Source: Jimgerdemannia flammicorona
Lineage: Eukaryota
Length of the DNA stretch: 34,045 nucleotides
Direction of reading: 5' to 3'
Assembly (NCBI GenBank): GCA_003990765.1
Contig: RBNJ01000288.1
Coordinates: forward strand, 1-34,045
Each line of letters opens with the position of its first letter. Positions within the stretch are counted from its first letter, which is position 1. The translations under genes were made by a program, and so were the position numbers. The notes below the pieces were generated by a model. That model was not told where the DNA came from. It did not search any database and saw only the letters and a list, made by a program, of their open reading frames with translations. Shown in pieces: positions 1-32,509 of this stretch.

Positions 1-1471
1 ACTTCTCCCCCCCAACTACCTCTGCTGCCTGCACCGATTCTTCCTCTCCCTCCTTCCTCTCCTCAGTCCGCACAGACTCATCCCAACCATCCTCCGACAT
101 ATCCTCCAACTCCCCCTCTCCCACCTCGGGGACACCATACTGGACCCGATTGTCATCCACCATTGCCGTGTCCACTATCACCCCCTCCGGCCCCTGTCCC
201 CCATTCTCCTTAGCCTCCCCCTCCTGATTCCCAGGCCCCGCCCAGATGCTCGCACTTGCTCCAGTGCCCTCTGCCATAGCCCCTGTCTTCGGACCCCTAT
301 CCAAGTCGGCCAACAAATCCTTCTGCAGCTGTCGTCCCTTCGCCTTCTCCCAGAGCACCTTGTCCATTCGTACCTTCTTGCCCTCAATCACCTCCACCAC
401 CGTCCCAGCCTCATATGCCATCCAAGCCTTTCGCCTCCTCTCTACTGCCCCCACCAGGTCCTCAAGCGCCTCCAGCAAGTCCTCCTCATCTTCTGCCAAC
501 CCCTTCACTCTCGACACCTTGCACTCCACCGGTCCCCACTTCAGTGCCACTGGCCAGTCCCTGGCCTTCCTGGTATTCTCCATCCCAAACAACCGCAGCC
601 AGATGTCCACATCACCTGTCCTAAGCTCCGTCCCCTCCCAAACTCTAAAGCCAATATCGACCACCTTACCATATTCCTTCACCACATTGGTGACCAGCTC
701 CCTCGCCAGTTCCTTCTTCACTGTTGGCAAATCCGCAATCACCAGATGAACTACCCTGGGATCCCAGTGCATGCACCTCGCCATTGGCACCGCAATCCCC
801 CCAACCACCACACCCTTCTCCACCGCCTCCAGTAGCAAACCTTCCTCTTCAAACCCCACCTCGACTGCCTCCAGCTTCTTCAAGAACTTGACTGAGGCTG
901 CACCCTTCACCTCACTAGCCAGCAACCCTAGCACCATCTTCGCCGTCACCGCCAAGCCATGGAAGCACAGTGTAATGGCGAATTCCGATCTAGACTTCTT
1001 GAGTAACGGGGCCGCCACAAGGCCCGTCACACCATCAGCCAGGTCCCCAGACCTCGCGCCACACCCCTGTCCAGGTCCCTCATCAGCCGTCACATCTGGA
1101 TTTTTTTCCAGATTGCCCGTCACACCGCCATCAGCAGTCACAGCCTCAGCCCCTACTCCTCCAGCCCCCCTATGCTGACCCTCCAGTGGAGAGGCCTCCT
1201 TGCCCCTCGAGGTGGCAGTCGCCTTTCCAAGCTCCAGCCAGCCATCCAGCCCAGTCGCCTGTTTCCCCATCCTGACCTTGTCCATGAAGGTCATCCTCCC
1301 CTCTCCATGTGGCCTTGCATCTCCTCTGCCGCCACTCCCGGCCCTGCGCCCCCTCAATGAGGCACTCGGCATACCAATACCAGCACCTTGACCCCTCCTC
1401 ACATGCTGCCAGTCAAAGGCACTGGGGCCCCCCTGTCCAGTACGCTCACCAGAGTGTGTGTTGCTCGCTAT
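1..1471 (-). mobile_element. Non-LTR retrotransposon (LINE) ORF1, 5' part; the frame is open for ~490 codons and runs off the left window edge
   Basis: Manual minus-strand translation has no stop from 1471 to the edge; the ORF track misses it because there is no stop codon. It reads ..FDWQHVRRG..MTFMDKVRMG..VKFLKKLEAVEVGFEEE..VVHLVIADLPTVKKELARELVTNVVKEYGKVVDIGFRVWEGTELRTGDV..GASASIWA.., which resembles the RRM-like region of LINE ORF1 proteins. The start is ATA at 1471-1469 (possibly a mutated ATG); the first in-frame ATG is at 1372. No CCHC knuckle is visible. Confidence 0.65.
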
Positions 1472-1699
1472 GTTGATAGCACCAAGACTTGAAAATGTTG
1501 TCGAAAGTGTTGCCTGAAGTTTGTGTCACCCGAATGTTACCGGTGAAAGCCTCGGACTCACAGTTGGTTATCATTGCTCATCTTATATACTGTATGATCT
1601 TCTTATACTTCAATCTAGTAGCTTACAAGGAAAGACTATCTTCTGTGCTGATGTCATCATTCTGGGGTCACCATTATAGTATATATATTATTGTAAGTT

Positions 1700-3150
1700 A
1701 TATTATATGAGAGTTTTAAATTACTATATTTAGTTTTGAATTTGAATTAAATTTGGAATTCAATTCAAAATTTGAATATTGAATAGAATTTCAAATTCAA
1801 TTTATATAATTTAAAACTAATAATAGTAATATTATCTAAAAAATAGAGCTATATATAACTGCTTTTTAGATACTAAACTTTCAAATATTCAAATTAAATT
1901 AAATTAAACCTCAATTCAAATTGAGGTCTGATTCAATTTAATCAAAATAAATTGAAATCTGATTTGATTTGAAATATTTATTTCAAATTCAAAATATAAT
2001 AACTTAATAGAAATATATCTAAATTTAATATATTTTTATTATACTAGATTCTTTATTGTAAGATATATTAATAAGCTAAAATTTATTAAATTTAGATATA
2101 TTTTGATTGAGTTATTGAATTTTAAAAAATTAGATTTAAATTGAACTTCAAATTAAATTAGACCTTAATTTAATTCCAATTAAATTGAATTGAGTCTTAA
2201 TTTAAATTAGAGACAAATTTAATTTAATTTAATTTATTCTAAGCACTAGTAAAGTCTTAATACTAAGAAAGAATTTTTAAGTATTTAGAAGAGACTGAAA
2301 TATTGTAAAATATTCAAAAAATAAATAAATAAGAAAAAACTTAAAAAAATAATATAAAAATAGACTATAACTAAGCTATAATTAAGAAATTATTATATAT
2401 AAGATTAGATTTTTTTTTTTTAATAATTATATTAATATATATTATTAGATAAATTAATATCTAATTTTATACTTATATGTACTAGAGTTTAAGATAACTA
2501 ATAGTTTAATAGATTTTATGTATCTATTATTTTTTATAATTAAAAAATAAAGTATCTTAGATTACTATTTGTAAAATTAGATAAGATAAATATATATATA
2601 TATAGTTAATTATTATTATTATATTTTAACTTTAGAGATATAAATATAAATATCTTTTTATAAAGTAAAAAGTTGTATACTTTAATAGATGATCTAATAT
2701 TATTTATTATATTAAATAAATATTTATTTAAAATTTCTAAATATTATTTCTGACTTTTTTAAACTTTAGAATATTTAACTTTATAATATTTCAGATCTTC
2801 AAAGTTAATTAGTAATTTTTCAATCTTATTCTAATTTAATTACTAATTATTATACTGACTTCTGAATATATAATTCTAATAAGATTATAACTACTATCTG
2901 TTCTAAGTTTATTTCTTATATATTATAATACTGATAGTAGTTTGGGAGTTTTGGAGTTAAAACCCCATCAAACAAGAAGAAATTTATAGCAGTGAGTACC
3001 TTATATCTGAAAGCAGAATACTTGTATACTTTCTACATTAGATATTTTTATCTTCAGACTATAGATATTTTCAGGCTACTAATATATTTACTCAAATATT
3101 TACTTTTATCCATTCCATATCTCAAGAAAAATAAACAGTAATAACATAGT
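1700..3150. repeat. Extremely AT-rich, heavily mutated repeat relics
   Basis: Almost no CpG, strong G/C depletion, no ORFs, and repeated GAATTC/AATTTGAAT-like units; sharp compositional contrast with the GC-rich genes to the right. Confidence 0.6.
1883..2248. mobile_element. Old, degenerate palindromic MITE related to the element at 23231-23856
   Basis: Inverted arms 1999-2030 and 2084-2115 match at 29/32 nt. The right end AAGCACTA matches the young MITE end GAGCACTA. Internal AATAACTTAATAGAAATATATCTAAATTTAAT resembles AATAACTTGATGAATAATTATCCAAATTTGAT in the young copy. The left boundary is approximate. Confidence 0.55.
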
Positions 3151-6347: not shown

Positions 6348-7070
6348 TCACGGCAATGGCAAATCAAATACAACAGGCGGATTTAGGGGTTTGTACGTGA
6401 GCGTGCAGGTACTGGCATTGACGAACAATGTCCCCTCGGTCCCGTCCGCGGCCGTGCCAAATTCGTACCCGTACCCCTCGTGGATGTGGCCGAACACGTG
6501 CGCCCGCGGCCGCACCTGGCGTACTCGGTGAAGGAGGTCCTCGCACCCGACGTCGGTGTCGTTCATCGTACGCGCGAGATGGCTCCACGGAGGACCGTGC
6601 GTAATTAGGATGTCCGTGTGCGCGGGGATTTGGGCCCATTTGGCTTAGGAGGGGGAGGAGTAGGTGGAGAATGAACTCGAAATTCATTGCGAGGGCAAAA
6701 GAGGGTCTGTTCAGAAGGGAGACTCACCGGCAAGCTCAGGCCCCCTCGGCAAGTTGAATCCCCAATCGCAGAATTCGGGCTGCCACGGACTACCCCAGCA
6801 CCTCCACCCTCCATCTTCAGCAGGGAGAGTATACTCTTCGTCCTCAAGGTAGACGACGCCGTACTCATTCGCCTGTCGGTACAGAGTTTTGATCCGCTCG
6901 TGGTCCTCCTTGTTGCGGTGCCACTGATCCCAAGTTTTCTCGTAATGCGCCGTGTCGAACGTCAAGTCGTGGTTACCTGCAATCACTAGCTTCGTGCTGT
7001 GCGAGGGACACGGGTATTAGAATCGTGCGTATGGGACATGAGGGGAGGGAGGAAGGGAGGGAGAGGGGGG

Positions 7071-7127
<57 letters not shown>

Positions 7128-11447: not shown

Positions 11448-16519
<5,072 letters not shown>

Positions 16520-17910: not shown

Positions 17911-19386
17911 TCACTCGCGCATTCTCAGACGATATCTAGCTTGCGGGAATAAAGTAACAGCAGGATATACGTACTTTAGGAAACCACGATAAATCACACC
18001 ATAGTCAGTTCCGTTAATCGAAACGGCGCATGAATTCTCGTCTAGGTTCATATAGAAGGAAATAACATCGCCGCTACCAAAAGGTCTTATACAGACATTA
18101 TCATGAGTATCTAATGTACCTGCATATTTGAGTGTACTACTGAAGCCATTGGATTTTAATGCGCTCGAGAATTCGACCGCCAACACGTCTCTCTCCGTGT
18201 CAAAGGTCTCTCCTATTATGGTTTCTCCTACCATTCCGATCGTGTCTCGACCCAAGTTATCCACGACGCCTGTTGATTCAATAATAATGTCCCACTCACA
18301 AATGCCACCACCGCTTATAATGATCGGTTTGACTAGTAGCGCGCTTCTCGCTTGGGAGTTCGATCCAGGTTCGCCTTTCGGGTACTCTACCACCGTGTCA
18401 TTCTCGGAGAGGACAAGACCAGAACCGAGCTTCTTCGGATTCCAGCTATTTTGAGGTTTGCCACGGAATTCCGTCGGGTGACCTGAAGGACAGTGAATAC
18501 TTGTGCCGTAATGGCCGAGGAATACGAATTTTCCAATGATGTCATACATGCCGTCGATCGACTCCATCAGGCGTGCTAGGCGGTGAGCGCAGATGAGGCG
18601 AACGTTGATGTGCTGCATCATCCTTGATACGGAGTCTTCATTTTGGTCGTCAATCGGGTAGAGCTTTTTGTTCGGTTTAAGCGCAACGCTCTTTTCAATC
18701 ATGAAAGCACCGAGGGCTTTGTGACGCTCTTCATGATCTGATGTGTTTTCGCTGCTGGCCCAGGCCCATTCTATGACACATAGCAGCAAGTCGTTCTCCG
18801 ATGTTTTGAATTGAAAGTCGTTCGAGTCTAGCGTGGCCTTAAGTAAGAACTCGAGCGCGTCAGCGGAAAGCCCATTCAAATCACCAAGGACAAGCCGCCG
18901 AATGCGAAATGGTTTCAGGAGGATGTTATAAAGATCAATATTATGTTCGTTGGGATGCACGGCGGCAACAGCTTCATTTATCAACGAAGCCACCATATCA
19001 AGCTCTTTTGTCTCTTCCGCTTTCTCCATAACCAGCTTCATCAAGTTGGGCAACAGAAAAAAAGTCGCTGCACGATATGTTTGGATGACCAACTCGGGTG
19101 GCATTGGAAGGGCGGATTCGATCTCGCCGGTGTAGATGAATAGGAGAACGACACGAAGCGCGTCAGACTTGATCTCCCGGAGAGCGACCTTGTCCGCGTC
19201 CCGCTCACGCATTTCACCATAGAGCATCACGCTGAAGACCGCGCACCGCGCCGCGAGGACGCTACGCGTGGCGCCGAGCTCTACCCCGTCGGAGCAGATG
19301 AGCGTCACATCGTGGAACCGCGAGTCGTTAAGGAGAAGAGCCAGGTCAGCGCCGAGGTTGGTTCCGGGGTTGGTCGAATCAGGCAT
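17911..19386 (-). CDS. Intronless BTB/POZ protein with a C-terminal SPRY/B30.2-like beta domain, 491 aa
   Basis: N-terminal BTB (LLNDSRFHDVTLICSDG..ATRSVLAARCAVFSVMLYGEMRE..LLFIYTG), a BACK-like helical middle (SENDLLLCVIEWA), and a C-terminus CEWDIIIE..GDVISFYMNLDENSCAVSINGTDYG..VYPAVTL typical of SPRY-like folds. Confidence 0.85.
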   Translation of the reverse strand: MPDSTNPGTNLGADLALLLNDSRFHDVTLICSDGVELGATRSVLAARCAVFSVMLYGEMRERDADKVALREIKSDALRVVLLFIYTGEIESALPMPPELVIQTYRAATFFLLPNLMKLVMEKAEETKELDMVASLINEAVAAVHPNEHNIDLYNILLKPFRIRRLVLGDLNGLSADALEFLLKATLDSNDFQFKTSENDLLLCVIEWAWASSENTSDHEERHKALGAFMIEKSVALKPNKKLYPIDDQNEDSVSRMMQHINVRLICAHRLARLMESIDGMYDIIGKFVFLGHYGTSIHCPSGHPTEFRGKPQNSWNPKKLGSGLVLSENDTVVEYPKGEPGSNSQARSALLVKPIIISGGGICEWDIIIESTGVVDNLGRDTIGMVGETIIGETFDTERDVLAVEFSSALKSNGFSSTLKYAGTLDTHDNVCIRPFGSGDVISFYMNLDENSCAVSINGTDYGVIYRGFLKYVYPAVTLFPQARYRLRMRE

Positions 19387-19401
19387 GGTGTTGATGTTGG
19401 A

Positions 19402-19495
19402 AAGATGTGGAAGATGTGGAAGATGTGGACGTAGTTGTGAGTAGTTGTGAAGATGTGGAGGTAGTAGTTGTGAAGATGTGGAGGTAGTTGTGAAG
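19402..19495. repeat. Short compound tandem repeat (AAGATGTGG / GTAGTTGTGA units) immediately 5' of the BTB gene start
   Basis: AAGATGTGG x3 followed by alternating GTAGTTGTGA(AGATGTGGAG) units. Confidence 0.75.
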
Positions 19496-20268
19496 CTGCT
19501 GCGCCGCTCCTGCTAATTAATTACATGTATTACATGTCAACATTCTGGATGCGTCACATGACGCACCATTCTTAGTTACATCGTATTGTTGGCTATTATA
19601 GTTCAATGTTCAATGTAAGCATGAAGAGACGTAAAAATATTATGGTTGAGCTTCTAAATATATCAGTCAGATTTAACTAAGTCTAGTGTTCTGAATTCCA
19701 ACCCTGAATGACCCATGTCACGAAATGTTTTCTAAATAAAACATATTTTTGATCCAGAGAAAAGCAGTGATATTTAGAGATCAGAAATTGGTTGGAAAGG
19801 AGGGAGGTTCGGCAGACTTTAGTGAAAGAGGTCGTAGGCATTCTCCTTTTGGATTTTGAGATCAGGCAGATTTTTCGTCGATGGTTCCAGTGAGATTTTT
19901 TCAATTTTTTTATTGGAATACAGCAAAAGCTGTAAAAAAAAAAAAAAAAAAAAAAAAAGTTGATGCATACTCAAGGAATTCACAGTTGGCATTTGAATGA
20001 GATATACTAAGATCAGCCCAAGGGTTCACGGGGTTGACACCTAAGGCCTTAGAGAAACGGAGGTTGAACGATCAATGGGAGCTCTGTCAAATCCAAGATA
20101 GGGGGTCCTCTAGGTGTGTAGGATTGCCTCCTCCCTTCAAGCATTCGGTTTCCTTGGTGGAGAGGCGAAAAGTAGGTTATGAGTTTGAGACGGTTCTGCC
20201 TTAGCTTGTGTAGTATATATATACAAAATTGATTTCTATTTATATCTCCATTTATATATAGAAGCTCA

Positions 20269-20308
<40 letters not shown>

Positions 20309-20851: not shown

Positions 20852-22906
20852 TGTAAGAGAGTTGTTTTTTAGGGTAACTGTTATGTAGTTCTAGAAGGGT
20901 TTTCTAGAAGTTCTGGATGTTCTAAAAGACTGTTTTCTTATAGTCAAGATCAATTTTGTATAGAGTACGTCCTCTATGCTTATTGATTTCAAGATCAGGT
21001 TGACATCTCAACCAAAGTCCTTTTTTGGACTAGTTCTAGATATTCAGAATTTTCTGTATTTCAGGAAGTTCAAGAAACTAAGACCAGCTTAGTTGAATTG
21101 ACATATCGCTGCAGACAATATCTAATTAGAAAATTTCATAATGGGGTTAGGAGTGGGACCTAACAGGGAGTAGATTTACTTAAGAGTGGTTTGTGGATTA
21201 TTATATAGGTTTATTTGTTATTTATGATATTACTATACTAGGAGTAGTTGTGTAAAGGGATATTGTGGAGAAGTATTTAGGAGTGTTCAAGTCTGAGATT
21301 CTGAGGTCTGGAGTAGGGGGTATTTATACTAGTGAGGGGCTATCTGGACTATGCTGAATATAAATGTAGCACTAAGTACCTTGCTGAGTCAGAATGCAGT
21401 CACATAGTATAAGAGTGATCTGACATGTCAAGAGATTGTTTGACTGCTGAGTCAGTTCACAGTCATGTTGTACAAGACTAATCTAACTATACTATGACTG
21501 CTAGGCTATTTATGATTTAGGCATTGTCTGGATAGTCTTCAATAACATCACCATTGATGATATCATCTCTGATGAAGTAGTTGTCTAGGAAGAGTGGTTC
21601 ACGGATTACTTCTTCTTGTTGGCTGAGGTAATAATACATTGGAACTTCATCTCTATTCCACAGAATTGTATCATCTGTTTTGCATGCTGGATAAGGTGTT
21701 GATGAGTGAAGGAGTGGTGCATCATCTTTGCTTTCATTGGTTTTGCTATCTGCATACCTTCTATAGGTTACAGCACTATAAGTTGCAGAGTTATAGTATA
21801 CTGGTGGCTGTGGTTCATATTGCTTATACTTGGATGGTAGAGTGGTTAGTTCAATCTTGAGGGTTGTCTGAAGATACAGGTTATATTCTCCAGTCTCTTC
21901 ATTGTAGTTGAAATAATCAGGCATAAATGCGGATTAGTATTCATACCAATGGTCATTATCTCAATAGGTCTCGTATGTGGTTATAAACTGTTGTAAGTTT
22001 ATTGACAGAATTGACAGCATGATCAGGGTTGGTAGAGATTCTTGGCTTGAGGTCATATCAGCATTAGAGAGATCATTGTCTTCTGCTTCATCTTCATCAA
22101 AGTAGATTATATCATAGACGTCCTTCATGGTATATCTGACTTGGGGCATTTGTAGGATATGATCGTTGGGGTGTGAGAAGGTTCTGTCTGTGGTTTCAAC
22201 ATACTTGAGGTACTTGTGATTGAGTTCTTATACATATCATATCATCAATTTGGCCATAGGACAGGGTAGCAACTATTTCAGCTGTAGTAACTCAGAGGTG
22301 GGGAATAACAGTGCTATACTTATAGAAGAGTTCTCAGTATTTGTGGGCAATGAGCTTCTGGTGTTGAGATATCTGGGTAATGTCTGTATCATAGTGATGT
22401 TCAACTATGTCTTCCAGGAGGTAGCTGATCTGGTAGTAGCTTGAGATTTGTCTGATTTGATAGACCTTATTAAGCATGTTCAGGGCATTCTATTGGGCTT
22501 CTATGAAGTAGAGGGGTGCTAGGCTATGGATATTCATGAGGGGTAGAGGGGGTGTGGCTTGGTTGACAATGGCATTCCAAATGTCAGTGTGGATGCAGTT
22601 ATAGATCTCAGTAATCATATTTGTATGTTTGGAAGTTGTAGTTGTTATTTGTTTTAGTTCTCTGTTTTGACATATCTTGGGGCTCAGTATATATACATTG
22701 GGTCCTGATTGGTAAAATTTTGTTTATGTGAATCTTGTGTTCTGTGACTTTGTATTGACTCAGCTTTGTGCACTGTAACTTCGGTTTGACTCAGCTTTGT
22801 AATTAAGCAGGTGATTTCCAGATTTGTTTGGAGGTTGCATGTGATTTCAGTAGCTTGTTCAGAGGGTGACATGTGATTTTAGTAGCTTGGAGGTTGTGTG
22901 CTTACA
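20852..22906 (-). repeat. 3' LTR (2,055 bp)
   Basis: Direct repeat of 29733-31793 with TG..CA ends. It differs mostly by transitions, plus a 10-nt deletion near 21288 and a 4-nt insertion near 22230. Confidence 0.95.
21517..22618 (-). pseudogene. U3-encoded accessory ORF, 3' LTR copy (stops plus a 4-nt insertion)
   Basis: ORF-track fragments 21961-22149 and 21517-21924 are collinear with the 5' LTR copy; ATG at 22618. Confidence 0.75.
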
Positions 22907-22921
22907 ACTCTCCTCTTCTTA
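22907..22921 (-). other. Polypurine tract
   Basis: Minus strand TAAGAAGAGGAGAGT directly abuts the TG of the 3' LTR. Confidence 0.85.
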
Positions 22922-23044
22922 GCTTTTGACGTCCTTGTTAGGACCATCTTATTTTGTTTGAGTTCTTGATTTCATTTGTGATAATTATAATGTTCAGGAG
23001 GGTAATATATAGTATATACTGATAGGTATTGGAGTATTCAGATT

Positions 23045-26000
23045 TCAGTTGTTCAAGAAATCATATTCCTGAACTAAGTTGGTGGCATTCTGGAGATTGG
23101 TGTTGGGTTCCTAGGTTGCATCATGGATTGGGTAACCTTTCCATTTAACAAGGTACTCAGGGTGGTTCTTGTGGCCATGTTTGTTGAGAATTTGTTCAAC
23201 TTTGTACTCTTCTTGGTCATTAATAATGACTAGTGCTCCTAATGAGTCAATTTAATCCGGATTGGATTTGGATTGATTCTGATTGAATCCCATCCGGATC
23301 AACTCAGATGGGATTCGAATCCCATCCGGATGGGTTCGAATCAGATTCGAATCAGATTCTAATCGGATTCGAATCAACCATTGTTTTGGTTTCCAAATTA
23401 GACAATTAAATGTTTACATCAATAACTTGATGAATAATTATCCAAATTTGATGATCTTGGTGTCATTTGAAAGCCCTTAATAAGGCCTATCTAATGATAC
23501 CAAGAACATTGAAATCCGATCATGCGTTGCTGATTTATAAAGGAAAACGTCTGAATCGCCGATTTTGGAAATTCTTTGATTTGCCGATTTTGGAAATTTC
23601 GTCAAATGGAACGTTTTCCTTAATATCTCGGCAACACGTAATCCGAATTTAATGTTCTTGGTATCATTAGAAAGGCCTTATTAAGGGCTTTCAAATGACA
23701 CCTAGATCATCAAATTTGGATGATTATTCATCAAGTTATTGATGTAAACATTTAATTGTCTAATTTGGAAATCAAAACAATGGTTGATTCGAATCCGATT
23801 TGAATCCGATTCGAATCCATCCGAATCCCATCCGGATTGACTCGTTCAGAGCACTAATAATGACAGGTGCAGGTGGTTTGGTAGTTCGGTTCAGAAACAG
23901 TTCATAATCATTTTCATTGTATTGCTTGAGTCATTGAACATTAAAGACTGGGTGAATCTTAATGGTGTCTGGTAGTGCCAATTTGTAGGAGGTCAGAGAG
24001 ATTTGTGCAATGACTTCAAATAGTCCAATGAACTTACTGTTCAGCTTTGTAGATGGTCTGTGCTTGAGGTTGTCAACTCAGTATCCTCAGATGTCTAGTA
24101 GAACTTTTTCTCTAATATTAAAGGTTTCTTCTTAGCTGTATTGGTTAATATACCATGACTGTTGTTCTTGAGCTCATGATAAATTCTCAATTGTGATTTA
24201 GCTTAGATTATGCATTCGGAGCAGAAATTCTTCAACAGCTTCGACTGTAGAGGGTTCTTTGGTAGTTCAGATGAGTGTCAAAGGGGTGTTTGGGTTTTGT
24301 CCAGTATTGGTAAAGAATGAGATCATTCCAAGAGAGGCTTGCTTATTGTTGTTATAGGCAAACTCGACTGCGGTGAGGTGTTCATACCAATTATCTTGTA
24401 AATATAGTTCCTTAGCATTTGTTCCAGAGTTCAGTTCATTCTTTCAGTTTGGCCATCAGTTTCAGAGTAAAAGGCTGTAGATAGTACAAGTTTTGTTCCA
24501 AGATATACATAGAGAGCTTTCCAAAAATGGCTTGTGAATTTTGGATCTCAGTCACTAATATTGATCTTAGGAAGACCATGATAGTGAAAGATGTTGTCAA
24601 ACAAGAGTGTGGCTATATCTGGTGCTGTTGCAGTAGTGGTGGTTGGTACAAAGTGGGCTTGTTTGCTGAGATAATCCATGAAGATAACAATTGCATTCTT
24701 TCCGTTCTTGGTTCAGGGTAGTTATACAATGAAGTCTATAGAGATTTGTTCCCAATTAGTGGATAGTACTGAGATAGGGTGGAGTAGACCAGGTTTTGCT
24801 AGTGTTGAGGACTTGTTTCATTAGCAGGTATTACAGAAAGTGATATAGCTCTTGAGCTGATCTGCCATGCAGGGCCAATAGAAGTTTCAAGAGATAACTT
24901 CATAACATTTATCAAATCCTAAATATCCAGCTATAGGAGTATCATGACATTCGAATAGGATAGTCCTTCAGAGATCTCGGTTGTTTGGAACATACAGTCT
25001 GTCCTTATAGTAGATAGTATTGTCCTTTAGTTGGTATTGATGATACTGTATATGCTTGTTGGCATCATCACTATTCAGGATTTCTCAGAGTGCTTGAGCT
25101 TCTTTATCATCAGTATATGCTGTGATAATTTATTCCATGATGGAGTTTGTAATCAAGGTGAGGGTTTGGATAACTTCTTCGATTGGTGGTCTGGAGATTG
25201 CATTGGTGACAATGTTTTCCTTGTCAGGGTGGTACTGGATTTCATAGTCAAAGTTGGTGAGGACTTTTATCCATCTGGCTTGCTTTCAAGAAAGGGTAGT
25301 CTGTGTCTTGATGTTGACTAGTGACTTGTAGTCAGTCAATATAGTGAAGTGTGCTCCTTTTAGGTATAGTCGCCATTTGATCAGAGTATCTACAATGGCT
25401 AGCATTTCCTTCTCATGAGTTGCATAGTTGGTTTTGGCATCATTGAACTTGTGGGAGTGATAGGCCACAGAGTGTCCTTTTTGCATGAGTACTGCTCTAA
25501 GGGCTAGATCAGAGGCATTAGTAGTGACTTCATATGGTAGGGCAGGATTGGCTGCCTAAAGTATTGGAGTGGTTATCAAGGTATCTTTCAATACTTGAAA
25601 GGCTGTATCTTGTTCAGGTCCCCAATTAACAAGATTGTTGAAGTCTTTCTTGCTGTACTTGATTATTTGGGTGAGAGTGGTAGCGATTTTAACAAAGTTG
25701 GCAACAAATCACCTGTAATAGTTTACTAATCCCAGGAATGACTGGAGGTCTTTCAGCTTCTTGGGTCTGGGCCAATCTTTAATAGTAGAGATTTTGCTGG
25801 GGTCCACTTTAATTCCATTTAGTATGACAATATGTCCAAGGAATTGGATTTCTTTTAGGAGAAATTCACACTTGCTGAGTTTTACAAAGAGTCAGTTTTC
25901 TTAGAGTTTCAGTAGTACTAGTTCAAGGTGTTTGAGATGTTCCTCCAAGGGTTTGCTAAAGACTAGGATGTCATCAATGTAGACAATAACGAATTTGTCC

Positions 26001-27196
26001 AGATATGGGTGCAGGATAGTATTCATCAGGGTCTGGAAGGTTGCAGGAGCATTAGTTAGGCCAAAGGGCATAACCAGGAACTCAAAGTGTCCATAGCGAG
26101 TTTGGAAGACTGTCTTGTAGATGTCTTCTTCTTTCATAGCAATTTTCTAGTAACTATTTCACAGGTCAAAGGAGCTCATAAATTGTGGGTTGGTAAGTCT
26201 ATCAAATATTTCATTGATTCTCGATAGTGGGCAACAGTTCTTGATGGTCTGTTCATTGAGGTCACAGTAATCAATGCACATTTGCAGGTCTCTTCCTTTC
26301 TTGACAACAAAGAGGACTAGTGTACCATAGAGTGATATACTGGGTCTAATGAATCCTTATTCTAGGAGTTTGTCAATTTCCTTCTTGAGTGCATCAATTT
26401 CTCTCAGAGATATGTGGTAGATTGACTTGAAGGCTGGTTTGGCATCTGGGATAGTCTTGATAGTATGGTCTACTGCTTGTTTGGGAGGTAGGCCTTTCAG
26501 GAGCTTCTTTGGGAATATGTCTTGGAATTTCTGGAGTAGTGGTCTGATACAGCTGTCCACTTTGGAAAAGTCTTCTTCAGAGTTTTCGGGTTCTCCTTTG
26601 GATGGGCAGATGGAGATGGCAAAAAGAGGGCATTTCTTGGCTAATTTCTTGAGTTGTAGCTTATTGATGTGGGTGATCTTTGGTCTAGGGTCACTAGAGT
26701 TGAGTGGGTCCTTTTCACCTTGCAGTTTGAAGTTGTGGTATCCTTTCTTGATGGTCAGGGAATGGTTTACCCAATCAATCATGGGGTTTTCTTGTTTTAA
26801 CCATGGAGTTCCAAGGATGATTTCATTGTCAGAGAGTGGTATGATCTGGAGGATAACATGTACTCGATAGTCACCAATTTGGAAGAGCAGGTTGCAGACT
26901 TCCTTGCTAATAACATGTGAGGTTCCATCAGCTGTAGCAACTGTTTGTGTTTGTTGTACTAGAGAGGTGAAGACCTTGAGTCTGTTGGCTGTTTCTTCAT
27001 TGATGAAGTTGCCTGAGGCACCACTATCTATCATAATCTTGACAGGTGCTCGGTTGACAAAAGCTTTGAGTATAAGCAGTTTGTCCAATCCAATGGTGGT
27101 GATTTCAGTTGTAGGAGTTTTCCTTCTGTTAGTTCTTCTTTGGGCCAGTTCATTGACACAAGAGAAGTAATCATCAATCATTTGGAAAGAGTACAT
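23045..27196 (-). pseudogene. Degenerate pol: aspartic protease, reverse transcriptase, RNase H, integrase, chromodomain
   Basis: PR IDSGASGNF (DSG 27028-27020). [26 protein letters not shown] (YIDD 25981-25970). RH TTNASD..NYATHEKEMLAIV..TDYKSL. IN ECHDTPIAGYLG..YWP..CNTC and WEQISIDFI. Chromodomain PPAPVII|NDQEEYKVEQIL..EYLVKWKGYPIHDAT*EP. Many in-frame stops are explained by CGA/CAA/TGG transitions. Confidence 0.95.
23231..23856. mobile_element. 626-bp palindromic non-autonomous DNA transposon (MITE), hAT-like, inserted at the start of the chromodomain
   Basis: TIRs TAGTGCTC..GAGCACTA; perfect 8-bp TSD ATAATGAC at 23223-23230 and 23857-23864; inverted arms of ~250-300 bp; subterminal GATTCGAATC/CCGGAT repeats. 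An 8-bp TSD with TAG termini is typical of hAT elements. Confidence 0.92.
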
Positions 27197-27297
27197 TCCA
27201 ATACCATGGGGTATCAGCCACTTGGTACATATCCATCTTTGATTTTCTTGTAGAATTGTTCTTCTTTATTCATAGTAGGTTGGGCTGGAGCCTTATT

Positions 27298-27708
27298 TGA
27301 TAAGCCAAATCCTTTGGATCCTCAGATGGTAGGTAGTAGTTCAGGGACTTCCTTGACTGTCAGGGTTGACTTAATTTTTTCAAATAGAATCTGGGCGATG
27401 CAGAAACCAATAGGGATCTTGAAGGGCATCTAACTGTGGTTTTGGATGAGAACAATAATTTCACCTGTGTAATCTTCATCAATGACTCCTCCTTCTACTG
27501 AGAGTCCTTTTAATGCTAGACTGCTGTGACAGCATATTCTTCCAATATGTCCTTCAGGGATTTGGATACTGATTCCTGTATAGACTTGTTTGACTTCTCG
27601 GTTGGAAACTGTAGCTTCTTCAGCTGCATACAGATTATATCCAGCTGCTTTTTGACTTTCTTTGGTTGGGGCCTTAGCAGTTTGTCTTAACTTAACAAAG
27701 TTCAGTAT
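27298..27708 (-). pseudogene. Trimeric-type dUTPase domain in the gag reading frame
   Basis: ILNFVKLRQTAKAPTKESQKAAGYNLYAA..TGISIQIPEGHIGRICCHSSLALKGLSVEGGVIDEDYTGEIIVLIQN..FCIAQILF..I*GSKGFGLS. All five dUTPase motifs are recognisable, with transition-type damage (D>N, R>H, R>C, R>*). Confidence 0.93.
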
Positions 27709-27779
27709 TCTGGTGGTCAGGTTATTGAGGTGGTGCAGGGTGGTAACAGTTACTCATATTGCTGTTCAGGGGTTTCGGT

Positions 27780-30060
27780 TAGAGCAGGTACTGGCCATGT
27801 GTCCTGTCTTTCAGCAATAGAAGCATGCTTGGCTTCTTTGAAGTTCATTCCTTTCGCCTTCAGTGAGTTTCTTGAAGGTACTTGGCTGGGTGGGTTTATG
27901 ATTTCTGGGTGTCCAAGAGGTGGATGTGGAGGGAGCTCAGGATGCTTCATGCTTGGGTTCTTCTTTCTTGGTCTAAGTCTTTTCCTTGTTGTTGAATTGT
28001 CTTCAGGGCAGAATTGGTCCAGCTGTTAGGATTTGCTTGACCATAGTCTTGATTCTTACTAGGCACCATTGTTGGTGATCACAACCAACTGGGTGGCCTT
28101 GTTCATGGATTTTTCTAGTAAGCCATTCAGGCAGGGCATTGAATAAATGGTCTGCTCTTATACCATTTCGTATTTCATCATTGGTGATATATCCTAAGCC
28201 AATGGTGTTCAGGAGTGACTTGAGTTTTGTACAGAAGGTTTCGAATTCTTCTTTGCCATGTACATTGAATTTGAGGTTGCGGAGTTTTATTTGGGATTCA
28301 GCGATCATAGTTTTGCTGTGGTATTGAGCAATCATAAGTTGTTTGAGTCCAGTGGCTGCAGGATGGGCTCTATATCCTGGGGCATTGTTTGCTGCATTCT
28401 GAGCAACTACTGCAGGTTGGGTGTCCTATGTGAGGGGTTTTTCAGAAAGGGTTCACCACTATTCTTCAGCAGGTCCTCAGAAGAATGTAACAACTCAGCG
28501 GACATAGGCTGTGGTGGTAGCAAAGAGTTATTCCAGAGTGTGGTCTTGATTGTTTATTAGAATGCAGTCCACAACTTGCTCATTGGTCCATTGATTGGCT
28601 TCAAAGTTGGTATTGACTACACTAATGAAGCTTTGGATTTCTTTTGTGGTACTATTGAAGATAGGTAGGCTCAGATTTTTGGTAGGTTGGGTCTGTTCAG
28701 CTAAGGTAGTAATAGTTGCTACTATTATTGCTACCTGGGCTATAAGGTCTAGAATCTGTTGGTTTGCTATATTGTTTACTGGAGGTGGTTGAACTACTGA
28801 TAGTGGTATTACTGGTACTACTTGAGATACTAGTGCAGAGTGTGATAGGGTTCTTTGGGTCTGTATAAGTTGCTAGAGTAGTAGTTGTGGGTCTGGAGTG
28901 AGGGCTTGATAGATAACTGTTTATTGCTGTGTAGGTGTATTCTGTTCTGATGGAGGTACTTCTCCTTCAGTAGTATATCCAGGATCAAATTCACTGAGAT
29001 ACTCCTCCTCCTCTTCAGTTTGGTCCCCATGTAATTGGGTTTGCTTGGCGTCGAAGTAAACGGAATCAGTTATATATCTGATTTCAGATGGACTTAATTC
29101 AAAGTCAAGTTCTGGTTCAGTATTGGTTTCAGATTCAGGTAGGGCTGTAGCAGGGCCTACTTCAGGTTCAGGGTCAGGTAGTTGATGAAGAGTTTCTCTT
29201 ACTTCTTCTTTAAGAATATGGCAGGTCTTACTGTTCTGGAATTGGTAGTATAGTGTGGTCTTGGTTCTGGTATAGTGAAAGTTGGTAGAGTTGAGCTACT
29301 TGGCTATAGAGGCTTGGGCTTCATGAGGAACTAAGGCTAGAAAGACTGCTGCTGATTGTCCTAGGTCGCTTGGATTTGTAGAGCTGATAAAACTCTTATT
29401 GAGAAGAGTAAAGAAGGTTTCAATAAGACCTTCTTCATCTTGACTTGCTGGGTGTAGTGCAAGGAGTTCAGTAAATAGGGTTTCACCTATTTGTTGATTT
29501 AATTGGAGTACTTCTTTCTTTGAATGAAGTTTGTCTCACTTGTTGTAGATGTGAAGGTCAAATTGTCCTTATACATTAGGTTCAATTCTCTCCAGATTGT
29601 CAGATAGTTCAGGATAAATTTCAGTTCAGAGGTTGGGCTTTATACCAACTTGTAGGAATTCACAGAGGGGTTTGTAGCAGGGTGAGGAAGCATCTTGAAG
29701 CAGAATTGGATTGTAAACCACTGCTACCAAGTTGTAAGAGGATTGCTTTTTAGAGTAACCATTATGTAGTTCTAGAAGGGTTTTCTGGAAGTTCTGGATG
29801 TTCTAAAAGACCATTTTCTTATAGTTAAGATCAATTTTATATGGAGTACATCCTCTATACTTATTGATTTCAAGATTGGGTTGACGTCTCAATCAAAGTC
29901 CTTTTTCAGACTAGTTCTGGATGTTCAGGATTTTCCATATTTCAGGAAGTTCAAGAAACTAAGACTAGCTTAGTTGAATTGGTGTATCACTGTAGACAAT
30001 ACCCAATTAGGAAATTTTGTGATGGAGTTAGAAGTGGGACCTAATAGGGAGTAGATTTAC
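27780..30060 (-). pseudogene. Degenerate gag with a long N-terminal extension and a CCHC zinc knuckle
   Basis: One frame (codon starts at positions divisible by 3) runs from inside the 5' LTR through KNLSLPIFNSTTKEIQSFI..FEANQW, the 28335-28003 ORF, and KKLTEGERNELQRSQACFYC*KTGHMASTC (27825-27784). Stops are consistent with transitions. The 5' start is uncertain. Confidence 0.75.
29718..29729 (-). other. Primer-binding site, initiator-Met-tRNA-like
   Basis: Minus strand TGGTAGCAGTGG begins 3 nt after the 5' LTR. TGGTAGCAG is complementary to the ..CUGCUACCA 3' end of many eukaryotic tRNA-iMet. Confidence 0.75.
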
Positions 30061-30211
30061 TTAAGAGTAGTTTGTGGGTTATTATATAGATTTATTCGTT
30101 ATTCATGATATTACTATACTAGGAGTAGTTGTGTAAAGGGATATTGTGGAGAAGTATTCAGGAGTGTTCTTGTGTATTCGAGTCTGAGATTCTAAGGTCT
30201 GGGGTAGGGGG

Positions 30212-30219
30212 TATTTATA
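30212..30219 (-). promoter_or_regulatory. LTR TATA box (TATAAATA), putative genomic-RNA promoter; same motif at 21321-21328
   Basis: Identical in both LTRs, ~480 nt upstream of the LTR end and ~190 nt downstream of the U3 ORF stop. Confidence 0.6.
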
Positions 30220-30407
30220 CTAGTGAGGGGCTATCTGAACTATACTGAATATAAATATAGCACTAAGTACCTTGCTGAGTCGGAATACAGTTACATAGTA
30301 CAAGAGTAATCTGACATATCAAGAGATCATTTGACTGCTGAGTCAGTTCACAGTTACATCATACAAGGCTAATCTAACTATACTATGACTGCTAGGCTAT
30401 TTATGGT

Positions 30408-31505
30408 TTAGGCACTGTCTGGGTAGTCTTTGATGACATCACCATTGATGACATCATCTCTGATGAAGTAGTTGTCTAGGAAGAGTGGTTCGTAGATTAC
30501 TTCTCCTTGTTGGCTGAGGTAATAATATATTGGAACTTTGTCTCCATCCCACAGAATTGCATCATCTATTTCATATGCTAGATAAGGTATTGGTGGGTGA
30601 AGGAGTGGTGTATCAGCTTCGCTTTCATTGGTTTCGCTATCTGCATACCTTCTATAGGTTATAGCACTATGAGTCACAGGGTTATAGTATGCTGGTGGCT
30701 GTGGTTCATGTTGCTTGTACTTGGGTGATGGAGTGGTTGGTTCAATCTTGAGGGTTATCTGAAGATACAGGTTGTATTCTCTGGTCTCTTCATTATAGTT
30801 GAAGTAATTAGGTATAAATGCGGGTTGGTATTCATACCAATAGTCAATGTCCCAATAGGTCTTGTATGTAGTTATAAACTGTTATAAGTTCATCAGCAGG
30901 GTTGGTGGCATGATCAGGATTAGTAGAGATCCTTGGCTTGAGGTCATATCGGCATCAGAGGGATCATTGTCTTCTGCTTCATCTTCATCGAAGTGGATTA
31001 TATCATAGACATCCTTCATAGTGTATCTGACTTAGGGCATTTGTAGGATATGATCATTGGGATATGGGAAGGTTCTGTCTGTAGTTTCAATGTACTTGAG
31101 GTACTTGTGGTTGAGTTCTTGTATCATATTGTCGATTTGGCCATAGGACAGGGTAGTAACCATTTTGGCTATAGCAACTTGGAGGCGAGGAATAACAGTG
31201 CTATATTCATAGAAGAGTTCTTGGTGTTTGTGGACAATGAGCTTCTGGTGTTGAGATATCTGGGTAATGTCTGTATCATGGTGGTGTTCAACCATATCTT
31301 CTAGGAGGCAGCCAATCTGGTAGTAGCTTGAGATTTGTCTGATTCGGTGGGCCTCATTAAGCATGTTCAGGGCATTCCATCAGGCTTCTATGAAGTAGAG
31401 GGGTGCTAGACTATGGATATTCATGAGGGGCAGAGGGGGTGTGGCTCAGTTGACAATGGCATTCCAAATGTTAGCATGGATGCAGTTGTAGATCTCAGTG
31501 GTCAT
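30408..31505 (-). pseudogene. U3-encoded accessory ORF, 5' LTR copy; 365 aa when repaired; unknown function
   Basis: ATG 31505 to TAA 30408 is 366 codons with no indel. Its four internal stops (31448, 31382, 31034, 30884) are all CAA in the other LTR. Confidence 0.8.
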
Positions 31506-32509
31506 ATTTGTGTGTTTGGAAGTTGTGGTTGTTATTTGTTTTGGTTCTCTGTTTCGACACATCTCAGGGCTTGGTATATATGCATTTGGTCCTAATTGGT
31601 AAGATTTTGTTTATGTGAATCTTGTGTTCTGTGACTTCATATTGACTCAGCTTTATATACTATGACTTCGGTTTGACTCAGCTTTGTGATTAAGCAGGTG
31701 ATTTCCAGATTTGTTTGGAGGTCGTATGTGATTTCAGTGGCTTGTTCAGAGGGTGATATATGATTTCAGTGGCTTGGAGGTTATGTGCTTACAATCACGT
31801 TGTCGTATCAGCTCCCAGTTCCAGTTGGGTACAGTCAGGATGCCGGCCCCTGCACCACTTCACCCCCCACCAGTCAATCAAAAGGCCTCACCAAAATATT
31901 GTCCACCCTAGCCCCAATGACCACCTCCAGCCTGGCACCCTACTGGTTCACCATAATCACCCTTCCTCCTATCTATGATGGCCATCTCCCCTCTCATCCT
32001 GATATCACCTGAAAAACAGTCACCTATGCCAGAACTGCACTTGCTGGGAAGCTCACTAAAGCCAGAGGGCCCCACCACAGGTACCGAAGACTTGTAGGTA
32101 ATCTACACTGAGCACTTGATGCCCAAGGTCGACCGACTCTCTACGTAGCCCAAGACACACCAAGACAGCACCTTATTAGTGATAGCAAAAGGAAGAAGGC
32201 ACTGCACCAAAATGGATGCACTCCAGATATAGCCGAAGATACCAGAAACCATGAAAAAGTGGAGAAGACACCAATCTGACACTGATAAAGGGGTAACTCA
32301 TCACCATTGCCCTCCTCCCACCATGCCCATGCAGGCACAGCAAACCAACCCAAGGTAGAGGGGGTAATAATAGGGGAAAGGGGACTTGGAAGGTCACCTA
32401 CCAAACCTTGTGACTGGTAAGGTAGTGGAGAAAGGAGCCTATAGAAGCTCACTCATTCAACCCATTTTACCGTCAGACAACACTGCATTCTCATAATGTC
32501 GTTATGTAG

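Follow-up and report, generated by a model that had tools for sequence, protein, structure and literature searches.

A 34,045-nt stretch of the Jimgerdemannia flammicorona contig RBNJ01000288.1, referred to as the window at its full length, harbors on its minus strand a whole copy of a Ty3/gypsy chromovirus, which is recognized by its long terminal repeats (LTRs), a primer binding site (PBS), a polypurine tract, a target duplication and its protein domains, and which is heavily mutated from C to T and from G to A. Each of the two LTRs carries an open reading frame (ORF) in sense orientation, the LTR ORF, and the question of whether this ORF represents a gene of the element is the subject of the present study. 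The element, its LTRs and the two copies of the ORF are located as follows.

20852-31794, minus strand: whole copy of the Ty3/gypsy chromovirus
29733-31794, minus strand: 5' LTR, delimited by LTR alignment (TG at 31793-31792, CA at 29734-29733)
20852-22907, minus strand: 3' LTR, delimited by LTR alignment, with the polypurine tract AAGAAGAGGAGAG just before it
30408-31505, minus strand: LTR ORF, 5' copy, 365 codons and TAA, with four internal stops and an unbroken frame
21517-22618, minus strand: LTR ORF, 3' copy, with six stops and a frame-shifting 4-nt tandem duplication

The same open reading frame in both LTRs

The two LTRs are about 2.06 kb in length and 88.3% identical over 2066 aligned columns; on the sense strand they begin with TGTAAG and end with CTCTTACA, and by the TG..CA convention each would start one base later, at 31793 (5' LTR) and 22906 (3' LTR). 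The ATG of the ORF is located 290 nt into the LTR, past the polypurine tract, and its stop codon at nt 1387 of 2062. An extra in-frame ATG 19 codons upstream (31562; stretch 31562-31506, minus strand) occurs in the 5' LTR only, the 3' LTR reading ATA at this position, and the protein may start there.

A codon-by-codon comparison confirmed the original prediction that both LTRs carry the same sense ORF. Four internal stops interrupt the 5' copy, two of them TGA (codons 20 and 42) and two TAA (codons 158 and 208), while those of the 3' copy fall, in the register of the 5' copy, on codons 43, 95, 109, 129, 218 and 227, and all ten correspond to a sense codon in the partner copy. As had been claimed, the four stops of the 5' copy all read CAA in the 3' copy, and the six stops of the 3' copy all read TGG or CAA in the 5' copy. 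The 3' copy measures 1102 nt, which is not divisible by three, and a plain translation drops out of frame; the cause is a 4-nt tandem duplication after codon 127 (GATATGATATG, compared to AATATGA----TA in the 5' copy). As this indel is a tandem duplication, the open form of the 5' copy is the older one. The description of a complete gene in both LTRs is thus correct in that the same ORF is present in both, but both copies are broken at this locus, the 3' copy by the frameshift as well. Similarly, the notion that the copies repair each other does not apply to codons 20, 42, 95 and 109, which read TGA in one copy and CAA in the other. At all four positions the related protein P0004 (see below) has an arginine, so that the ancestral codon was most likely CGA, and this CGA has most likely been mutated in both copies, on opposite strands.

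Over the 1098 nt of the ORF, the sense frame in question contains five stops including the terminal one, whereas the two remaining sense frames contain 23 and 33. When the sequence was shuffled 2000 times with its dinucleotides preserved, the frame with the fewest stops out of three had 20.4 of them on average and nine at minimum; none of the 2000 shuffles reached five or fewer. These numbers bear on the possibility that the ORF is a chance open frame of an A/C-rich, T-poor sense strand. The composition of the LTR sense strand (36% A, 25% C, 14% G, 25% T) does lower the frequency of stops; however, the stop counts in the other two sense frames and in the shuffles, together with the existence of an open relative at 60% identity, P0002, already contradict a chance origin, which we consider extremely improbable. 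Searches by tblastn and blastn revealed no third copy of the ORF in the window, and neither the gag of the element nor any other part of the window showed similarity to the ORF.

Hypermutation of the element

Transitions account for 242 of the 263 substitutions between the two LTRs (the alignment extends at either end into 30 nt of unrelated flank). With C or G assumed to be ancestral, the sites that differ between the LTRs comprise 78 of 100 CpG, 98 of 318 CpA, 43 of 215 CpC and 5 of 265 CpT sites, and the ranking of mutation contexts in the element is accordingly CpG > CpA > CpC >> CpT. Only 18 and 10 CpG dinucleotides are left in the two LTRs, where 76 and 72 would be expected. The decay is a C-to-T hypermutation of the repeat-induced point mutation (RIP) or methyl-cytosine type, and it has affected both LTR copies; it also explains the stops in gag-pol, including the nine in the 712-codon pol frame. 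The density of stops is alike in the LTR ORF (4 in 365 codons) and in this pol frame (9 in 712 codons). Because the hypermutation struck both LTRs, their divergence is uninformative on the age of the insertion. Both copies of the ORF in the window are dead, with every stop made by the same hypermutation that riddled gag-pol, and a slippage duplication of 4 nt has further broken the 3' copy.

Elsewhere in the window, an AT-rich tract at about 1900-2950 (GC content 0.148 at 2001-3000) adjoins genes with a GC content of 50-56%; the tract could be a relic that was wrecked by the same C-to-T hypermutation. By themselves, this tract and the C-to-T pattern would fit an ascomycete with RIP as well as a host from the Mucoromycota or Glomeromycota.

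Relatives of the LTR ORF and evidence for coding

An exhaustive HMMER search against 1.84 billion representative proteins yielded three matches, P0002, P0004 and P0005. The last was rejected as a relative: it is a 1598-aa bacterial repeat protein in which a 45-residue low-complexity stretch was matched via nine repeats. Word-index searches for further relatives returned P0002 and P0004 only, each of which is the sole member of its own cluster, and the loci encoding these two proteins were not found in scans of metagenome, genome and viral contigs.

P0002 is an intact protein of 247 aa, encoded on a 998-nt contig from another source, and aligns to residues 115-364 of the LTR ORF with 150 of 250 positions identical (60%), 203 of 250 similar (81%), two gaps of two residues each and no stop. 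It has a glutamine opposite both ORF stops of the aligned stretch, and its C-terminal end is the same as that of the ORF. P0004 (128 aa, contig of 1180 nt) shares 82% identity with residues 1-128, and the differences are largely Arg in P0004 versus Cys, His or Gln in the ORF, the signature of CpG decay in the window copy. It ends just before codon 129, which is CAA in the 5' copy and TAA in the 3' copy, and P0004 is therefore probably another partly decayed copy. Blocks of the ORF are conserved between the relatives, e.g., EPLF-DNYFIRDDVI at the C-terminus, which disfavors mere compositional noise.

The relation to P0002 was compared with a neutral simulation, in which codons 115-365 of the ORF were randomly mutated to 60% identity with transition shares of 0.5-0.9 in 4000 runs. 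Under these conditions 3.8-5.5 new stops arose on average, and 0.5-1.8% of the runs were free of stops. Similar residues amounted to 70-72% on average and to 78% at maximum in the 4000 runs, while 81% were observed for P0002. This similarity, together with the in-frame gaps and the shared stop, indicates purifying selection on the protein, and that the LTR ORF is a real coding sequence appears well supported by these sequence comparisons.

Occurrence of the family in metagenomes

Parts of the LTR were present in six of the seven public runs listed, with shares of 0.05-0.19 and from five studies; five of these six are soil metagenomes, the sixth derives from an organism, and the best-matching run may come from the source of the window itself. 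Four runs were aligned to the LTR at 80% likeness. The material consists of short assembled contigs and represents supportive evidence rather than a census: 2886, 330, 554 and 361 contigs were matched per run, and all 30 bins of the LTR were covered in each of the four. The contigs differ from the window copy mostly by A>G and T>C (plus strand), indicating that the window copy is the decayed one. Among the 40 differing places listed, out of 510, 22 are located within the ORF, and none of these 22 creates a stop. The majority letter at 31034 (most contigs, all four runs) restores CAA at the stop in codon 158, and among the listed differences those at codons 126, 199, 220, 262, 264, 282 and 293 shift the ORF towards P0002. 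Among the 12 of 15 indels listed, those in the ORF are -1/+1 pairs no more than 5 nt apart (31166-31171), while the remaining ones are located before its ATG or past its stop. No joint that skips the ORF was present among those listed for the four runs.

It might be argued that the ORF is a passenger, i.e., a foreign or host coding sequence that was caught in the LTR and is unexpressed and of no use to the element. LTR retrotransposons are known to capture genes (PMC7264820, accessible part), the function of the ORF is unassigned, and no intact full-length copy was seen. However, among the 1.84 billion representatives there was no host or other homolog beyond the two element-like fragments, and P0002 has diverged from the ORF more conservatively than expected under neutrality, with in-frame gaps only and a shared stop. 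In addition, captured genes usually occur in one or few copies, as far as the accessible text of PMC7264820 describes them, whereas the ORF segment is covered in thousands of fragments in all four runs. We thus regard a passenger as decidedly improbable.

LTR signals and possible routes of expression

Three features of the LTR are relevant to the question of how the ORF might be expressed.

30212-30219, minus strand: TATAAATA, the same in both LTRs (3' copy at 21328-21321), candidate promoter of the genomic RNA
30091-30096, minus strand: AATAAA, in both LTRs (3' copy at 21215-21210), candidate poly(A) signal
31506-31794, minus strand: LTR stretch upstream of the ORF, with two tandem repeats of about 31 nt

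The motif TATAAATA is located 189 nt past the stop of the ORF, within the best-conserved block of the LTR pair, and AATAAA follows 116 nt downstream of it. Since the ORF begins after the polypurine tract and the conserved TATAAATA lies past its stop, it is plausible that the ORF resides in the unique 3' region (U3) of the LTR. If TATAAATA and AATAAA act as genomic promoter and poly(A) signal, U3 would measure about 1.6 kb, the repeated region (R) about 0.1 kb and the unique 5' region (U5) about 0.34 kb. The genomic RNA would then start after TATAAATA, downstream of the ORF, which would place the ORF within U3 and, behind pol, at the 3' end of this RNA.

Upstream of the ORF, one of the tandem repeats contains TGAGTCA twice (31680-31674 and 31649-31643), which we take to be an AP-1/Gcn4-type site, and both sites are kept in both LTRs; the second repeat contains CCACTGAAATCA twice in the 5' copy. 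Both LTRs also retain the TATATA that lies some 70 nt ahead of the ATG (31580-31575 in the 5' LTR). As a promoter of the ORF, TATATAAAG at 31659-31651 was also considered and rejected: the 3' copy reads GTGCACAAAG at this position, and the motif is hence a product of C-to-T/G-to-A decay in the 5' copy.

Expression of the LTR ORF appears plausible from these motifs, and its protein would be produced from a separate message. As the preferred route, a short mRNA might start behind TATATA, be driven by the tandem TGAGTCA repeats at the start of the LTR and end at the LTR's own AATAAA, which would render every LTR a self-contained transcription unit. A spliced subgenomic RNA is our second choice.

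Alternatively, the ORF might be a real coding sequence that is located in a very long R or 5' leader, forming the first cistron ('ORF0' before gag) of the genomic RNA. In this case, the start of transcription would fall within 250 nt of the beginning of the LTR, downstream of the repeats and TATATA at 31580, and TATAAATA would be irrelevant or secondary. Such an arrangement would agree with the position of the enhancer-like 31/32-nt TGAGTCA repeats, which are about 1.4 kb away from TATAAATA but only 140-290 nt from the ATG, and with the TATATA ahead of the ATG, kept in both copies. On the other hand, it would require an R of about 1.5 kb (from the start site to AATAAA at 30096), which to our knowledge is far longer than in any LTR element; it would place gag 2 kb from the cap and behind a long ORF, and it leaves aside that the two LTRs are most strongly conserved in the TATAAATA block. 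Altogether, we consider a leader of this kind improbable.

Features of the predicted protein

The protein had originally been described as uncharacterized, and indeed no Pfam family matched at E values up to 1. Similarly, no solved structure was matched in a profile search of the PDB; the best match, a phage tail fiber with an E value of 0.62, was rejected. The ESM Atlas yielded no usable match for P0002, for which the model score was 0.39, and the clusters obtained for P0004 at 0.90-0.93 were dismissed, as they were unnamed or unrelated with a low count of shared features. AlphaFold2 modeling, based on a three-row alignment, resulted in a mean predicted local distance difference test (pLDDT) score of 32.5, with helices over residues 2-141 and little structure beyond; the C-terminal half had no predicted fold. 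In the predicted protein, the N-terminal 140 residues or so are helical and near-neutral; beyond an acidic linker, the C-terminal half is strongly acidic, rich in aromatic residues and proline, and carries conserved motifs. The 247 residues of P0002 have an isoelectric point of 4.05 and comprise 46 Asp and Glu versus 10 Lys and Arg, 36 Phe, Trp and Tyr (14.6%) and 24 prolines. The best 19-residue hydropathy window (residues 194-212) scores 1.65 and contains two prolines, and its counterpart in P0002 contains three prolines and an aspartate, which argues against a membrane segment and agrees with the earlier view that the protein lacks a transmembrane segment and is not an Env.

The acidic, aromatic tail that follows the helical domain is reminiscent of activation domains. 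The leading candidate for a role, albeit a doubtful one that is based on composition, is hence that of a nuclear transcriptional regulator with an activation-type tail that might feed back on LTR transcription, much like the 3'-encoded transactivators of retroviruses. Anti-silencing, transactivation and copy-number control had originally been put forward as candidate roles.

A putative accessory gene within the LTR

Taken together, it appears likely that an accessory gene of about 365 codons, which truly encodes a protein, is part of the 2-kb LTR of this chromovirus family. Being located after the polypurine tract, the gene would be copied into both LTRs by reverse transcription in every cycle, and it would be left behind in solo LTRs. 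Several observations weigh against this interpretation. The excess of similarity over the simulation (81% compared to a maximum of 78%) is real but modest, and the absence of stops from P0002 is in part a matter of ascertainment, since protein databases hold open frames only. There are only two relatives among the 1.84 billion representatives, both on contigs of about 1 kb, and no intact full-length copy was seen, as P0002 covers the ORF only from M115 onward and P0004 only as far as residue 128. The location of the ORF inside an LTR was observed for the family in the window only. The assignments of promoter and poly(A) signal are motif matches, and one seeming TATA box proved to have been created by mutation. 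Moreover, the C-terminal half of the protein may be disordered, as judged from the pLDDT of 32.5 and the Atlas score of 0.39 for P0002, its richness in aromatic residues and proline partly mirrors the A/C-rich strand, and the proposed function is drawn solely from composition.

As a more far-reaching and tentative idea, which as a whole is rather unlikely, each LTR of the family, solo LTRs included, might be a self-contained gene with enhancer repeats, promoter, 365-codon ORF and poly(A) signal, the acidic product of which would act in trans, e.g., by activating the LTR or by blunting silencing or hypermutation by the host.

Comparison with known systems

The nef gene of human and simian immunodeficiency viruses (HIV/SIV) and bel/tas of foamy viruses overlap U3 and start in the internal region. 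They resemble the LTR ORF in that the gene would follow pol at the 3' end of the genomic RNA, and the comparison with foamy-virus Tas also fits the acidic C-terminal tail and the possible feedback on the LTR. In contrast to these genes, the ORF in the window lies entirely past the polypurine tract, with 290 nt ahead of it, and no homology was found. The sag gene of mouse mammary tumor virus (MMTV), like the LTR ORF, is a whole sense ORF (about 320-370 codons) inside the LTR that is duplicated with it. Sag is a membrane glycoprotein, whereas the protein predicted here is unrelated to it, acidic and soluble-looking, without a transmembrane segment, and is carried by a fungal chromovirus that lacks env; the search for Pfam families and relatives returned no member of the Sag family. 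For betaretroviruses of the MMTV type, sag is described as located in the LTR and hence as kept in solo LTRs (PMC4667437, accessible part).

Additional ORFs (aORFs) of LTR retrotransposons are, in the accessible text of PMC7264820, located in the internal region, either upstream of gag or in the stretch from pol to the 3' LTR, and include env-like sense ORFs, the antisense ORFs of Grande, RIRE2 and Retand, and that of Boty of Botrytis; the same text contains no phrase that places an ORF in, within or inside an LTR. The brtn of Boty is named in PMC8365987, as far as that article is accessible. As with aORFs, the ORF in the window is an extra, family-wide ORF with no assigned function and no homolog outside elements, but it is located inside the LTR itself rather than between pol and the 3' LTR, in sense orientation and without a transmembrane segment. 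The ORF3s of bdelloid elements are, in the accessible portion of PMC5408684, varied, captured and internal. The crapaud element of Podospora has variable LTR halves, which in the accessible account are not described as coding. For LTR retrotransposons other than retroviruses, we found no published case of a complete ORF contained in the LTR, in a search to which subscription journals and supplementary tables were external. Judged by titles and the opening lines of abstracts, the papers retrieved for ORFs in LTRs deal with retroviruses, miRNAs of foamy viruses or general statements.

LTRs are commonly taken to be non-coding control regions, and annotation pipelines, counts of solo LTRs and LTR-based dating assume so. 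If the present interpretation is correct, a selected gene located wholly in the LTR would be copied twice per insertion and would survive the LTR-LTR recombination that deletes gag-pol. Its dosage would thereby track the whole history of the element, growing with each insertion and outlasting the loss of gag-pol, and the LTR would be a natural site for a trans-acting factor that aids the family or hinders host defenses or competing elements. It might further be speculated that the arrangement of the MMTV type, otherwise described chiefly for a small number of retroviruses, extends to a fungal retrotransposon, and this would be the first case of a sag-like gene carried in the LTR of a retrotransposon that is not a retrovirus. 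The ORF would also provide a long, alignable coding marker for the evolution of LTRs, as sag does for betaretroviruses in the accessible text of PMC4667437. The family is abundant in soil metagenomes, and material for a test thus exists.

Architecture of the element

Outside of the LTRs, the element comprises the following features.

29718-29729, minus strand: PBS-like TGGTAGCAGTGG, directly after the 5' LTR
27750-29541, minus strand: gag-like frame of about 597 codons with stops, with a CCHC knuckle near its end
27430-27753, minus strand: dUTPase domain (Pfam E value 2e-21), preceding the protease at the N-terminus of Pol
25130-27265, minus strand: protease, reverse transcriptase and RNase H in a single frame of 712 codons, with nine stops including the last codon
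22910-25137, minus strand: integrase (zinc-binding, core and Tf2-type SH3 domains) and C-terminal chromodomain, with shifted frames

A 5-bp target duplication borders the insertion; it reads GTGAT at 31798-31794 and GCAAT at 20851-20847, with two transitions between the copies. Pfam searches identified RVT_1 (2e-28), RT_RNaseH (5e-28), the protease (4.5e-11) and Integrase_H2C2 (2e-14), and the domain order of protease, reverse transcriptase, RNase H and integrase is that of a Ty3/gypsy chromovirus. The chromodomain is located C-terminal to the integrase (Pfam Chromo, E value 8.2e-13, 48.5 bits compared to a cut-off of 25.1), while the CCHC knuckle of the mutated gag frame is weak (zf-CCHC, E value 0.016, 15.7 bits compared to a cut-off of 20.8). 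Based on the Pfam matches to dUTPase, protease, reverse transcriptase, RNase H, integrase and the chromodomain, the element is a chromovirus, as the original prediction had stated. A dUTPase at the N-terminus of Pol has been described for PosPlaTy3-3 of Postia placenta and also for Phanerochaete and Tuber (PMC2864245, accessible part). The element in the window resembles PosPlaTy3-3 in that both are chromodomain Gypsy elements with the dUTPase in this position (27430-27753 in the window). In the accessible text of PMC2864245, an 'add. ORF' appears in a figure legend only, and LTR-borne ORFs are not mentioned in the main text.

Within pol, between the SH3 domain of the integrase and the chromodomain, a near-perfect palindrome was observed at 23344-23817, which consists of two 207-nt arms that are 92% complementary and separated by a 60-nt gap. 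It is flanked by 11-nt tandem repeats and looks like a hairpin or an insertion similar to a miniature inverted-repeat transposable element (MITE).

Other features of the window

A search of the window against Rfam returned no matches. At 2-1525 (minus strand), a GC-rich and strongly C-skewed frame of 508 codons is open to the edge of the window and had no match in Pfam. Pieces of a gene for the second-largest subunit of RNA polymerase (Rpb2 domains 1, 3, 6 and 7) are located at 11662-16519 (plus strand) and are split over several frames, indicating introns; the gene might help to place the host. An intron-less frame of 533 codons with a BTB/POZ domain (E value 8e-16) is located at 17911-19512 (minus strand), about 1.3 kb from the 3' end of the element. 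The window further contains a run of 62 G (96% pure) at 7065-7126 and a run of 33 T at 20272-20304.

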